From positions 288,001 to 352,000 of the forward strand of contig JBCCHT010000002.1 of assembly GCA_039028615.1 (NCBI GenBank): a DNA stretch of 64,000 nt. The letters are read 5' to 3'. This document shows positions 1,064-8,739 of the stretch, piece by piece. The stretch's first letter is position 1; the number at the start of each line of letters is the position of its first letter. A program made the position numbers and the translations under genes. Below the pieces are notes generated by a model. It was given only the letters and a program-made list of their open reading frames with translations. It made no database searches and had not been told where the DNA came from. This DNA is from Myxococcota bacterium (GTDB lineage Bacteria > Myxococcota_A > Polyangia > Nannocystales > Nannocystaceae).

Positions 1064-2728
<1,665 letters not shown>

Positions 2729-2748
2729 CTAAAAACCGGTGGGGGCGA

Positions 2749-3039
2749 TTAGCCCTCGATGACGGCGAGGATCTCTTCCTCGCGCAGGACGATGTGCTCT
2801 TCGCCGTCGAGCTTCAGCTCGGTGCCGGCGTACTTGCCGAAGAGGACCTCGTCGCCCTTCTTGACGTCGAGGGCGAGGCGATTGCCATCGCCGTCGCGCT
2901 TGCCCTCGCCAGTGGCGACGACCTTGCCGCGAGCGGGCTTCTCTTTGGCGCTATCGGGGATGTAAAGACCGCCAGCGGTCTTGGTCTCCTCGGCCACGCG
3001 CGTGACCACGACGCGGTCGTGCAGGGGACGGATCTTCAT
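2749..3039 (-). CDS. groES: Co-chaperonin GroES
   Basis: [12 protein letters not shown]...[15 protein letters not shown]...GKYAGTE; GGAG RBS upstream of the ATG at 3039. Confidence 0.98.
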
Positions 3040-3154
3040 CGGTGATTCTCCTGGCTGAACTTTGTGGGGTGAAGTGGGAGGCGCGGCTCGAATCGAAATG
3101 GCTCGAGGCCGCAAACCGCCGGGCATCCTCGCGAGATCGCTGAGGATTCCTTCT

Positions 3155-4628: not shown

Positions 4629-5720
4629 CTACTCCGTCAGCAGCTGGTGGGTCGCGATCTCGTCGTCGGTCATCCAGTGGATGTCCTCGGCGGGCGCGGC
4701 CGCGAGCGTGAACCAGTAGAAGTCGGGGCCGAGCGGGTCACCCAACATCTCGATGAAGTACGCGAGCTGAGACTCGTGAGCGGGGTGGTCCTGGGGGTAG
4801 TCCGCGCCGTCCATCACTCCATCGGACCACGAGTGGACCCCGAGCATCGCGCCCGGCTCGATCGAGCGCTCGAAGCCGGCGCAGAACAAGTCGACCCCGC
4901 CCGAGGCGATCTGGCCGTCCGCAGGGACGAAGGTGCCCCAGCCCGCCTCGCGGATCAGGCGGCCGGTCTGCACGTTGACCTCGTCGTTGATGGAGCCCGG
5001 TACGTCTTGCATCACGAGCGTGTCGACCTCGGGGCGCTGCTCGATGATGGCGTCGACCTGGCGATACGTGACGCTGCCCAGCGTGCCCTCGAGGGTGGCG
5101 GTCGACCCGTCGATCGCGAAGCGAGACGTGCCCGCCCCGAAGAAGAAGCACGCGGAGAGGGTGCGAGTCTCTGAGCCGTCGGACTGTTGCACGATCATCG
5201 GGTCGACCGAGACCGAGCCGAGCTCTTCGTCGAAGCTGATGCCGTCGGTCTGGCCCTCGAAGAGGGTCTCCCCTTCGAGCCACAGGACCGCCCCGGTGGG
5301 TTCTTCGCTCGCGGCATCGATGGGAACGAGCAGCACGCGGTCGCCCATGATGACTGCGATGGCGAGCATGCCGTCGATGTCGGTGGGAGCGACCTCCTCG
5401 ACTTCGAGGGCTTGGTCATCGACCCGGATGGCACCGGAGGCCACCCCATCGATGAGGTCGTCGAAGCTCAGGCGATCGATCGAGACGCACTCGGCCGGGG
5501 GCCCGAGATCGGTGCCTCCGCTCGTGTCGTCGGCGTGGGTGGGAGCGGTCGTAGACTCCGTCGCATCGTCGACGGCGGCGCTGCTCGTGCTTCCGTCGGC
5601 CGACTCGGTCGCGCTCGACGGCGTCTGCGTGTCTTCGGCACCCGGAGCGACCGGGCACGCGGCGGCACTCAGGGTCAGGAGCGAAAGGAAAGGGACTTGG
5701 ACTCGGGTCCAGTGGGACAT
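4629..5720 (-). CDS. Lipoprotein with C-terminal COG3904-like (ClpP/crotonase-fold) domain
   Basis: Signal peptide ending in AAAC, S/T/D-rich linker, VPGSINDE, IASGGVDLFCAG, GVHSW, FTLAAAPA motifs. Confidence 0.7.
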   Translation of the reverse strand: MSHWTRVQVPFLSLLTLSAAACPVAPGAEDTQTPSSATESADGSTSSAAVDDATESTTAPTHADDTSGGTDLGPPAECVSIDRLSFDDLIDGVASGAIRVDDQALEVEEVAPTDIDGMLAIAVIMGDRVLLVPIDAASEEPTGAVLWLEGETLFEGQTDGISFDEELGSVSVDPMIVQQSDGSETRTLSACFFFGAGTSRFAIDGSTATLEGTLGSVTYRQVDAIIEQRPEVDTLVMQDVPGSINDEVNVQTGRLIREAGWGTFVPADGQIASGGVDLFCAGFERSIEPGAMLGVHSWSDGVMDGADYPQDHPAHESQLAYFIEMLGDPLGPDFYWFTLAAAPAEDIHWMTDDEIATHQLLTE

Positions 5721-6053
5721 GGCGAATGCCTCGGTCGGTTGCGATGACGCACCGAGGACCGAGAGGCACGCATATGCCCGAAGCAGCTCCACGTAGGATC
5801 AGCGCCGCTCCCGGTCACCTGCGGGCCACCGAGAACCGGAGAGCGCCACCAGCTGACTGAGATCGGGCGGTAACAAGCACGTCCCGCGGCTCCGATCATG
5901 TCCGAAAGATACTGTCGTCCGAGGGCGGCGCAAGCCGGGACCGCGTTCGCTCACGAACGAGGGGTGACGCGTCGCACCAGGGCCACGAGCGCCCGAAGAA
6001 ACCGGTCGAACGCCTGAAACCTCGCGGCGACGCGGTCGGCGGAACGCCGAGGC

Positions 6054-6836
6054 TCAGAAGCAGACCGCGGTGTCGCCCTTCAGCGGGAAGCACTCCTGCC
6101 CCTCGGGGCACTCGGGTGCTTCGAGATCGCAGGGCAGCAAGCATGCCGCGATCACCTCGTCATTGGCGACCGCACAGACCCGCTCCGCGTCGGCACAGGT
6201 CGGTGGTTCGATCGACTCGCAGAACGACACGCAGGTTCCGGTCAGGGCGTCGGGATCGACGTGAAAGCACATCGACGTGGCATCGCAATCGTCGATACCG
6301 CTGGTGGGCGAGCCGACCATGGTGCAGGGTTCACCCGCAGCGGCGGGGGTGTCCGAGATCGGAGCGCAGCGGGTGGCGTTCCATGCTTCGCCGCCATCGT
6401 TGGCCCACGGCATGCACTTTTCCCCGTCGGGGCAATCTTGCTCGATGATGTCGCACTCGTTCTCGACGCCACCGTCCGCGCCCCCGCCGTAGATGAAACC
6501 GGCGCCGGAGTTGGAATCGTCGACACCGCTGTCGGCATCGGTGGTGGTCGTGTCGAAGGCACCGCCCGACGAGTCCGCCGCCCCATTGGAGGTGGAGGTG
6601 AACGAGTCCTGATTGCCGTCGTCCGCGGGCGAGGTGGCGGTGGTGGTCACGTTGGCTCCGCCCGAGCCGTCGCCGCCCGACGGGAGCGTGCCGTCGTCGC
6701 TGCAGCCGACGAGGACCCCGGCCAGCCCGAGCACCGCGATCAGGGGGGCGCCGACTTCGCGAAGCGGGGCCCGGCAGAACGGGCACGACGGTTCGGAGGC
6801 GCGGACATGCCGGTCACAGCTCGGGCAGCTCTTCAT
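6054..6836 (-). CDS. Cys-rich lipoprotein with N-terminal CxxCxRH...CPFC leader; candidate radical SAM substrate
   Basis: CPSCDRHV-CPFC, hydrophobic stretch with LVGC lipobox, single Tyr in GFIYGG, C-terminal ECD..QDCP.GEKCMPW.NDGG Cys-rich domain. Confidence 0.85.
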   Translation of the reverse strand: MKSCPSCDRHVRASEPSCPFCRAPLREVGAPLIAVLGLAGVLVGCSDDGTLPSGGDGSGGANVTTTATSPADDGNQDSFTSTSNGAADSSGGAFDTTTTDADSGVDDSNSGAGFIYGGGADGGVENECDIIEQDCPDGEKCMPWANDGGEAWNATRCAPISDTPAAAGEPCTMVGSPTSGIDDCDATSMCFHVDPDALTGTCVSFCESIEPPTCADAERVCAVANDEVIAACLLPCDLEAPECPEGQECFPLKGDTAVCF

Positions 6837-6876
6837 TGCCCTTCAAGGCTAACAAAACAAACTACTATTACCAACA

Positions 6877-8118
6877 TCATTCGGCGCCAGGGCCGAATGG
6901 TTCGACGATCAGCTCAAAGGCGCCCATCCCGAACGGCTCGTCGGGGGCGGCCTTGGTCATGACCACACGCTCGCGCAATCCACGCTCTCGCAGATCGAGC
7001 ACTCGGTGATGGCAGTACGGGTTGTTGCCGGGGCGACCGAACAGCGGCTCCGCGGTGGCAGTGCAGCCGGCCTTGCAGGTCTCGGCGTAGTAGCAGTCGC
7101 GGCAGTAGCCCCACAGATCGTCGACGGTACGGCGCTCGAGGGCGCGAATCTGCGGCGCCTCTTCCCACAGCTTCATCAGGCTCTGCTCGCGCACGTTGCC
7201 GCCCGTATTGGCCGGGCCCCCGAGGCTGGGGCAGCTCTTGATCGCACCGTTGGACTCGATGCCCAGACCGGTGCGCCCCGCCTGACACCCCTGGTAGTGG
7301 GCGTCGGCGTTCTGGTTGCGACGCAGCCTCTTTTCGAGCGGACCGAAGTAGCCGAGGTTGTTGCCCGGCCAAAACCGAATGCCCCGGGCGTCGCACAGAT
7401 CGAGCACCCCTTCGAGCTCTTCGTAGACCTCGACCAGCATGTAGGGCTGCAAGACCATCTCGGTGTGATCGGCCGCGTTACCGTGCGCGATGGTGAGGAA
7501 CATCTGCCAGACCCCGACCCCCGCGTCGGCGAGCAGCCCCCCCAGCTCGACCAGCTCCCCCATGGTGCCGCGGTTGATCTGCGAGTTGGCGCCGAGCCTG
7601 ATGCCCGCCTCCTTCGCGAACCGAAGCGCATCGAAGGCCCGCGTCCATCCGCCCGGCGTGCCGCGCAGCGCATCGTGGGTGGACTCGAGACCATCGATGG
7701 ACACGGAGATGAGCTCGATGCCCGCCTCGGCCAGCGCTTCCACGCGGGGGCGAGTGAGGGTGAGGCCTCCCGTGGTCATGGTGGCCTTCATGCCGCGCTG
7801 CCGAATGTGCCGGACCACCGCCAAGACATCGTCGCGGAGATAGGCCTCGCCCCCGATCATGGTGACCTCGCCGACCCCGAGATCGGCGAGTTCATCGACC
7901 AGATCGAGCGACTCTTGCAGGGTGAGCTCATCGGGCCGAGCCTTGCCCGCCCGCGGGCCGCAGGCCTGGCAGCGCTGGTCGCAGGCCAGCGTGAACTCCC
8001 AGACCGCATACGTGGGCGAGGGGCGTTCGCGAACCTTGCGGTCGTTGAAGTAGCGATCGCGAGACTTGGGCAATCCGTCCACGACGGGCAAGCGACGGCG
8101 TGCTCGATGCAACGACAT
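6877..8118 (-). CDS. Radical SAM/SPASM maturase, splicease (PlpX-like; TIGR03913/TIGR04103-like) family
   Basis: AVWEFTLACDQRCQACGPRAG (CX3CX2C), GGEAYLR, SVSIDG, GNNLGYFG, GCQAG...GIESNGAIKSCPSL, LWGYCRDCYYAETCKAGC, GNNPYCHHR. Confidence 0.9.
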   Translation of the reverse strand: MSLHRARRRLPVVDGLPKSRDRYFNDRKVRERPSPTYAVWEFTLACDQRCQACGPRAGKARPDELTLQESLDLVDELADLGVGEVTMIGGEAYLRDDVLAVVRHIRQRGMKATMTTGGLTLTRPRVEALAEAGIELISVSIDGLESTHDALRGTPGGWTRAFDALRFAKEAGIRLGANSQINRGTMGELVELGGLLADAGVGVWQMFLTIAHGNAADHTEMVLQPYMLVEVYEELEGVLDLCDARGIRFWPGNNLGYFGPLEKRLRRNQNADAHYQGCQAGRTGLGIESNGAIKSCPSLGGPANTGGNVREQSLMKLWEEAPQIRALERRTVDDLWGYCRDCYYAETCKAGCTATAEPLFGRPGNNPYCHHRVLDLRERGLRERVVMTKAAPDEPFGMGAFELIVEPFGPGAE

Positions 8119-8172
8119 GCCGCTTCACGGTAGCAGACGGAGCGTTCGGGGCTCGGCGGATCGGTCGTTGCT

Positions 8173-8739
8173 ATGGTGGATGCGGTGAGCCAGATCGGCG
8201 ACTTCCTCGAGCGGGCGCGGGCCGCCGACGCGCCCCCCGTGTGCTGGGACGAACCGCCGTGGGACGGCGCCCAGGCGGCATTGCACTGGCTTCGACTCGC
8301 TCCCCCACCCTCTCGCCGGACCGTCGCTGCACGCCCGGTCTCGCGGGACGAGGTCGCACGGCTATGCGTGGCCATGGTCGCGACGTGCTTCGATGGACCC
8401 GGGCCCCCCTCGTGGTCGAGTCATGGGTTGGAGACCGCGCTCGATGCCGTGGCGGCCGCGACCGGGGACACGCCAGAGCCTCTGCTCGTCGCCGCTTGGA
8501 ACGAGCTCGGCACTCGCTCCCTCGATCGCGTGACCAACAACTTCTGCCGTGCGCTCGGGATCTGCGTGTTGACGTGGGAGCCCAAAGAGCGTCCGTGGGA
8601 TCTGCGGTGGATGCTCGAGCCGGGCACCCAGGCGCAGCTATGCCTGCGCTACTGGACGATGGCCAAGCGACCCGAGCTGTGGAACGACGAGCTCGAAGCA
8701 ACCACCGTGGCCTCGCTGGGACCGCACGCCGAGCCCTGA
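8173..8739 (+). CDS. Hypothetical protein
   Basis: ATG-started ORF divergent from the rSAM gene; no recognisable motif. Confidence 0.5.
   Translation: MVDAVSQIGDFLERARAADAPPVCWDEPPWDGAQAALHWLRLAPPPSRRTVAARPVSRDEVARLCVAMVATCFDGPGPPSWSSHGLETALDAVAAATGDTPEPLLVAAWNELGTRSLDRVTNNFCRALGICVLTWEPKERPWDLRWMLEPGTQAQLCLRYWTMAKRPELWNDELEATTVASLGPHAEP

Follow-up and report, generated by a model that had tools for sequence, protein, structure and literature searches.

A zinc-ribbon lipoprotein precursor as the predicted substrate of a splicease-clade radical SAM enzyme in Nannocystaceae

Does a radical S-adenosylmethionine (SAM) enzyme encoded next to a Cys-rich lipoprotein modify this protein, and how would it recognize it? 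The question is raised by a 64,000-nt stretch of DNA, below called the window (contig JBCCHT010000002.1, positions 288,001 to 352,000, assembly GCA_039028615.1), from a Nannocystaceae bacterium with a genome of 12.3 Mb and 68% GC. A radical SAM/SPASM gene is located there upstream of a gene encoding a 260-aa protein, both on the minus strand, with a gap of 40 nt (Table 1). A sequence-only reading of the window had described this pair and proposed that the enzyme is a splicease excising tyramine from the only Tyr of the neighbour. The coordinates of both genes, the single Tyr (Y116) with IYG codons at 6486–6494, the LVGC lipobox at residues 42–45 and the two quoted enzyme motifs (AVWE.TL.C...C..CG.RAG and GNNPYCHHR) are all found in the sequence and its translations. 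We consider it probable that the window enzyme modifies Y116, the neighbour being a predicted lipoprotein precursor with an N-terminal zinc ribbon that had been overlooked.

Placement of the enzyme among spliceases

The enzyme is 44.6–48.5% identical to a Nostoc enzyme of the TIGR04103 family, two GDL-motif (DUF1843) enzymes and a Tropicibacter enzyme, and 25–32% identical to six other SPASM enzymes, the reference enzymes having been taken from annotated plasmids. In a tree of 33 sequences the split comprising the enzyme and these four is supported by an ultrafast bootstrap (UFBoot) of 99 and SH of 0.986. All ten conserved Cys are shared, and the Nostoc enzyme matches at 87 of the 101 columns that are conserved among the myxobacterial enzymes. 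Judged by sequence, the enzyme is a member of the splicease clade, together with enzymes of the PlpX and GDL families. A structure search yielded seven matches, the best being SkfB (E 9e-19), with no solved splicease structure among them.

Enzymes with Cys-rich partners carrying Tyr-Gly (YG) form one clade (UFBoot 100), which in a larger tree has nine members (SH 0.996), the partner being missing or truncated in two. The genome has six intact splicease paralogues and one remnant; the latter (own-genome C80:11312-12842) is split into two parts, which flank a small open reading frame (ORF) for a secreted Cys-containing protein.

Predicted substrates: zinc ribbon, lipoprotein signal and Tyr site

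The ribbon of the 260-aa protein (P0002) occupies residues 4–21, ahead of the signal peptide. It is modelled with a predicted local distance difference test (pLDDT) of about 90 and superposes on RanBP2/NZF fingers in several matches, with root-mean-square deviation (rmsd) of 0.5–0.9 over 26–27 residues and Z of 2.1–2.9. A pattern scan of the own genome identifies nine ribbon ORFs, and in each of them the ribbon gives way to a hydrophobic segment, then to a lipobox-like Cys and to a Tyr before Gly or Ala; a splicease paralogue lies no more than 130 nt away from five of them, while four stand alone. At related loci from GTDB, nearly all of them in Nannocystaceae and other myxobacteria, a ribbon ORF is observed within 3 kb of the enzyme in 57 cases out of 66. 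The 71 ribbon ORFs of related loci contain YG (48), Tyr-Ala (YA, 14) or Tyr-Thr/Tyr-Ser (YT/YS, 6), and the three with none of these are all short or broken. Among 1.84 billion representatives we retained the best 150 profile matches, dropped 22 multi-ribbon proteins, and observed YG in 79, YA in 38, YT/YS in two, another Tyr in two and no Tyr in seven of the remaining 128. Ribbon lipoproteins with Tyr-Thr-Val or Tyr-Ser-Val as the sole core, outside the XYG rule, occur at L002, L003, L031, L062, L064 and L066.

A ribbon of the same spacing (CxxC-x10-CPxC) is present at the C-terminus of all 120 nearest relatives of the Azospirillum GDL enzyme, and at neither end of 120 out of 120 myxobacterial enzymes; the window enzyme, too, is without the zinc-ribbon tail that GDL-type spliceases have at the C-terminus. 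When 173,780 own-genome ORFs were scanned with a hidden Markov model (HMM) built from GDL tails only, leaders of the ribbon substrates took ranks 1–7 and the eighth, rank 9, while the ninth was outside the best 25 (E 0.0013 for P0002). The substrate ribbon is aligned with the GDL tail by hhalign over 30 columns with a probability of 95.1% and E 3e-8. The Tropicibacter plasmid enzyme (L070:2249-3871) has a ribbon at its own N-terminus (25.6 bits); this enzyme is flanked by a second radical SAM enzyme, a phosphotransferase and two peptidases. In the model of a GDL enzyme the ribbon-helix tail folds with pLDDT of 92–96 and a whole-chain predicted template modelling score (pTM) of 0.87, which suggests that the tail packs on its enzyme.

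PlpY has been shown to be an activator that keeps its function in fusions with the substrate or with the C-terminus of the enzyme, and splicease systems outside cyanobacteria, to lack a Y protein (PMC11414181). The occurrence of the ribbon on either the enzyme or the substrate fits this fusion logic. As the ribbon marks neighbours of radical SAM genes and matches the tail ribbon of GDL spliceases, it probably replaces the “missing” PlpY. The sequence-only reading had remarked on the lack of PlpY; there is indeed no Y gene, the 40-nt gap being too small for one and no neighbour being conserved in 77 related loci, but this is to be expected, since two-component systems are known (PMC11414181), and the ribbon is a candidate replacement.

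P0002 has one Tyr and 21 Cys in 260 residues, and matches no Pfam or NCBIfam family, TIGR04134 and Nif11 included. Its LVGC fits what we take to be the strict lipobox consensus, the lipobox Cys is invariant in 21 out of 21 ribbon-selected proteins, and five Lgt and four LspA matches are found in the genome. By its hydrophobic region, lipobox Cys and the presence of Lgt and LspA, P0002 is classified as a bacterial lipoprotein-type precursor. Residues 128–260 are modelled with pLDDT of 93–98, and residues 30–122 are not confidently modelled. The lipoprotein-type signal and the folded Cys-rich domain (pLDDT about 95) agree with the earlier notion of a lipid-anchored disulfide-rich substrate, but such a substrate is a minority form: only eight of the 71 ribbon ORFs bear the Cys-rich domain, and a folded domain is absent from most ribbon substrates, which often repeat the core.

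In the Cys-rich family a motif Phe-Ile-x-x-Pro-Asp-Gly-Gly precedes the domain, F114 being retained in at least 90% of 120 homologues. The IYG site, previously placed in a flexible linker, does follow a disordered tether (residues 46–113), but is itself a part of this conserved motif; Lys and Arg are sparse in this region. Out of 114 homologues (of the 120) that could be anchored, a Tyr within 25 residues of the domain is found in 17 of 17 with the ribbon versus 14 of 97 without it (Fisher 3.6e-12, an overstated value), and several of these 14 actually carry a ribbon, their start having been mis-called. The 21 ribbon-bearing Cys-rich homologues have YG (15) or YA (6) located 4–14 residues from the domain, and residue X of the XYG core is always F, I, L or V; in substrates without the Cys-rich domain it is mostly D, A or T. 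FIYG is retained in an orthologue with 78% identity, and eight Cys-rich partners comprise seven with YG and one with YA, in agreement with the expectation that YG be kept in orthologues beside radical SAM genes. The single Tyr, presented earlier as noteworthy in itself, was dropped as evidence: no Tyr is found in 23 of the 120 homologues over the part that aligns with residues 128–260, and the above-chance signal is comparative.

The domain of P0002 has 60 family members in the own genome, often in tandem arrays (e.g., C2:547466-551484 and C36:25488-29329). Databases label the family “ribulose phosphate epimerase”, a label that neither Pfam nor NCBIfam supports. In most members there are 26 Cys, compared to 16 in the domain of P0002, and the orthologue with 78% identity terminates at the same position. 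For this domain Foldseek gives no match at E <= 0.001 and VIA-align none at Z >= 5, ESM Atlas matches are unnamed Myxococcota clusters only, and residues 162–205 weakly resemble knottins (Z up to 3.4, rmsd 1.8 over 33 residues). The ribbon is present in only two of the 60 paralogues; both adjoin a splicease (10–38 nt) and have a Tyr in the Phe-Ile motif (FIYG in P0002, FYAG in C1:6.7 kb), compared to none of the other 58. YG close to the domain also occurs in one additional paralogue, which has no ribbon. Since the tree of the domain requires 13 changes of ribbon state (shuffle minimum 21, weak support) and the partner enzyme at C1:5.4 kb (Tyr-Ala pair C1:5342-7858) falls outside the clade of the window enzyme, several fusions or losses of the ribbon-domain combination are likely, and a single origin is disfavoured.

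The ribbon, signal and Tyr core are also combined with other passengers, namely, a four-Cys domain, beta-sandwich-like by eye and without a Pfam match, and a Stig1-like Cys repeat whose core, at the C-terminus, reads PYGAP (other-passenger proteins P0379, P0382, P0386, P0401, P0413, P0418, P0431, P0480, P0487, P0489, own-genome C8:122925-123572, and L029, L034, L044, L051). A single frame comprising both the enzyme and a ribbon-Cys-rich substrate (L018:2893-5148) was rejected as a probable long-read assembly error, another copy in this metagenome-assembled genome being frameshifted.

The four stand-alone ribbon precursors are own-genome C1:671920-672618, C30:88137-88715, C35:36128-36508 and C26:121445-121879; two of them have YAGP cores, and the leaders of the C35 and C26 proteins best match the C6 and C8 substrates. 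The enzyme at C42:17483-18898, which groups with enzymes of YA partners, has no neighbouring substrate. Taken together, the orphan enzyme and the matching leaders suggest that such enzymes may act in trans on stand-alone precursors.

Proposed pathway, function and alternatives

We propose a two-gene myxobacterial system of the spliceotide type. The 260-aa precursor would be made in the cytoplasm, where its N-terminal ribbon would dock on the neighbouring radical SAM enzyme and probably activate it, a role played elsewhere by PlpY or a leader helix. Going by clade membership and motif conservation, a tyramine equivalent would be excised at I115-Y116-G117, leaving alpha-keto-beta-isoleucine in the backbone. 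Because radical SAM chemistry depends on the cytoplasm and the ribbon is placed ahead of the signal peptide, the precursor would have to be modified before it is exported. If the established lipoprotein pathway applies, C45 would then be lipidated by Lgt, LspA would remove the ribbon together with the signal peptide, and the Cys-rich domain would fold outside the cytoplasm. The result would be a protein tethered to the membrane and bearing a ketoamide on a flexible arm of ~70 residues beside a disulfide-rich domain.

As other spliceotides inhibit Ser and Cys proteases only when spliced, in a ketoamide-dependent manner (PMC11626197), our best guess by analogy is a similar defence against such proteases at the cell envelope, a tentative assignment that we hold with less than even confidence and regard as the weakest part of the proposal. 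More doubtful is a joint reading, in which the ribbon would be a mobile splicease activator, residing at the C-terminus of GDL enzymes, the N-terminus of the Tropicibacter enzyme and the front of myxobacterial lipoproteins, and in the latter serving as a disposable cytoplasmic tag that gives unrelated envelope proteins (Cys-rich, four-Cys, Stig1-like, bare tethers) a ketoamide prior to export. P0002 would then trap proteases while tethered to the membrane, its hydrophobic P1 warhead lying next to a disulfide-rich domain that serves for binding, and six intact enzymes with nine tagged substrates in one genome would constitute a general envelope modification system.

Several observations weigh against the proposed modification of Y116 and its interpretation. 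The enzyme scores 415.9 bits with TIGR04103 (curated cutoff 725) and 402.6 bits with TIGR03913 (cutoff 591.75), the latter match stopping at profile position 391 out of 477; in the controls, the Nostoc enzyme scores 853.1 with TIGR04103 and the Azospirillum enzyme, 760.6 with TIGR03913. Being below both cutoffs, the enzyme belongs to neither TIGR04103 nor TIGR03913, and its earlier designation as splicease-type holds at the level of the clade shared with their members, but not at that of a curated family. Type I is represented in the tree by the Nostoc member of TIGR04103, a family that we take to be IPR026482, standing in for PlpX. PlpX is assigned to IPR026482 in PMC11002830. Myxobacterial enzymes as a whole do not form a supported clade (UFBoot 45). 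Only 12 of the 21 ribbon-selected proteins have the strict lipobox, and 20 of the 71 ribbon ORFs have YA or YT/YS without YG, which is outside the published XYG rule. In the reverse comparison, GDL tails have a median of 17.2 bits on the myxobacterial ribbon HMM, and an unrelated kinase ribbon from the own genome, 17.4, which leaves room for convergence of small fingers. The homologue counts overstate independence, because the sequences are related and the homologue query included the motif. The Foldseek and VIA-align searches revealed nothing linking the Cys-rich domain to proteases. Finally, DYG of RcsA is reported to stay unmodified (PMC11626197), and a PcpA fragment with both IYG and MYG, to lose one tyramine, assigned to MYG (PMC11414181).

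Among the alternatives, the most durable, still unlikely in our opinion, is a classical RiPP (a peptide made on ribosomes and modified after translation), with the protein serving as a carrier from which unlinked proteases cut off either a short peptide containing the ketoamide or a soluble fragment composed of the ketoamide arm and the Cys-rich domain. The unfolded state of most ribbon substrates and their often repeated cores agree with it, as do the listing of processing by PCAT (a peptidase-containing transporter) for spliceotides in PMC10885120 and the description of native spliceotide end products as elusive in PMC9811515. However, no peptidase or transporter is conserved near the enzyme over 77 loci (flanks of 1.5–3 kb), the lipobox Cys is invariant, the Tyr site is only 4–14 residues away from the folded domain, and some cores begin at the lipobox Cys.

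It is less probable still that the enzyme acts on Y116 by other Tyr-radical chemistry, such as backbone cleavage or crosslinking, with no excision of tyramine. Such chemistry would fit the Tyr-Ala/Thr/Ser cores of the relatives, the scores under both curated cutoffs and the 14 out of 101 clade-conserved columns that differ from the type I reference; yet the placement among spliceases is firm, the Cys set is shared, YG at the window locus and in its clade is canonical, and a survey of 189 genera is described as having confirmed 27 pairs of splicease and substrate in diverse genera (PMC10849128, PMC9811515, PMC10533398). We give very little credence to an incidental pairing that arose from shuffling in a large lipoprotein family, for although there are 60 paralogues, one of them having YG near the domain and no ribbon, a single Tyr is common and ribbon members are scattered on the weak domain tree, the coincidence of ribbon, Tyr and adjacent radical SAM gene (2/2 vs. 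0/58 paralogues), the Tyr near the domain in all ribbon-bearing homologues, the retention of FIYG in the orthologue and the single clade of enzymes with such partners argue against it.

Known systems and features of the locus

Type I systems PlpX/PlpY/PlpA and PcpXYA (TIGR04103; PMC11414181, PMC11002830) resemble the window locus in the enzyme clade, Cys set, terminal motif and XYG in the neighbour; their comparator here, the Nostoc enzyme (44.7% identity), is accompanied by a Nif11 precursor and, downstream, by a small gene. Unlike them, the window locus has no Nif11 leader or Y gene, and its substrate features the ribbon, lipoprotein signal, tether and folded domain. GDL-motif (Y-X10-GDL, DUF1843) maturases of TIGR03913 have the highest identity among the references (48.5%) and the same CxxC-x10-CPxC ribbon, but in these the ribbon is a C-terminal tail of the enzyme followed by a long helix, and the substrates are 55–70 aa in length, whereas here it is at the N-terminus of the substrate. 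Two-component type II systems RhaXA and RcsXA (PMC11414181, PMC11626197) similarly have no Y protein, and their enzymes are proposed to be bound and activated by part of the substrate leader; this part, however, is a PlpY-like helix in a peptide precursor, and our system is set apart from RhaX by description only. Alignments of type II, III and V leaders are named in the supplement of PMC11414181.

Nannocystaceae Cys-rich lipoproteins share with P0002 the domain (about 45–58% identity), signal peptide, tether and Phe-Ile motif, but most of them have neither ribbon nor Tyr, and 26 Cys instead of 16. The curated Bacteroidota pair TIGR04133/TIGR04134 already provides a precedent, in which the radical SAM gene adjoins that of a lipoprotein whose YG follows the lipobox and whose C-terminal part is folded (Parabacteroides, 280 aa). 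Still, the Bacteroidota enzyme is 25% identical and outside the clade, and its partner has an Ig-like domain and no ribbon; the window enzyme scores 138.7 bits with TIGR04133 (cutoff 425). The Bacteroidota systems have reportedly been shown to splice in the work of Scott et al. from 2022.

The chemistry is known, and the zinc-ribbon-tagged folded lipoprotein as a predicted substrate is an unnamed variant of it. Our literature search, including passages of PMC9505594 and PMC10885120, found no paper on a myxobacterial zinc-ribbon lipoprotein as a splicease substrate; the survey of Scott et al. (2022) may include myxobacterial pairs. With native end products termed elusive (PMC9811515), a lipid-anchored folded substrate is a place to look for them, and Plesiocystis, Enhygromyxa and Nannocystis are cultured relatives amenable to membrane proteomics. 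The link between the ribbons provides a hypothesis, open to test, on the engagement of spliceases without a Y protein, as well as a handle on the mislabelled 60-member myxobacterial lipoprotein family. As proteins could be spliced independently of a leader in other types once the activator had been fused to the enzyme (PMC11414181), the ribbon may also be a route for engineering.

Table 1. Features of the enzyme-substrate gene pair, in coordinates of the window.
Feature	Position	Strand	Basis or remark
Radical SAM/SPASM enzyme, splicease clade (P0001, 413 aa)	6877..8118	-	ORF, profile scores, tree
CxxxCxxC radical SAM cluster motif, residues 46–53	7960..7983	-	Translation
SPASM domain, seven Cys (C278–C369) common to type I and GDL references, GNNPYCHHR at end	7003..7287	-	
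Intergenic spacer, 40 nt, A/T-rich	6837..6876	.	
Predicted substrate, zinc-ribbon lipoprotein precursor (P0002, 260 aa)	6054..6836	-	
N-terminal zinc ribbon CxxC-x10-CPFC, residues 4–21, RanBP2/NZF-like; proposed enzyme-binding/activating module	6774..6827	-	Structure model, GDL-tail homology
Hydrophobic signal region and lipobox LVG-C45	6702..6746	-	
Disordered G/S/D/T-rich tether, residues 46–113	6498..6701	-	Structure model
F114-I115-Y116-G117, predicted splice site within conserved Phe-Ile motif	6486..6497	-	12 residues ahead of first domain Cys
Cys-rich domain, residues 128–260, 16 Cys; short form of Nannocystaceae lipoprotein family	6057..6455	-	

A consensus scan of the region 5700–8300, including the spacer, identified no sigma-70-like promoter; the spacer is strongly A/T-rich compared to the 68% GC of the genome. 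Six flanking genes of the window have no tblastn matches across the 77 related loci and therefore are not considered a part of the system. The window also contains, at 1064–3126 on the minus strand, a gene pair that, by its translations, we take to be groES-groEL. In the subclade formed by L029, L034, L044, L051 and L061 we observe a common neighbour gene, whose product appears by eye to combine PDZ and hydrolase-like parts.

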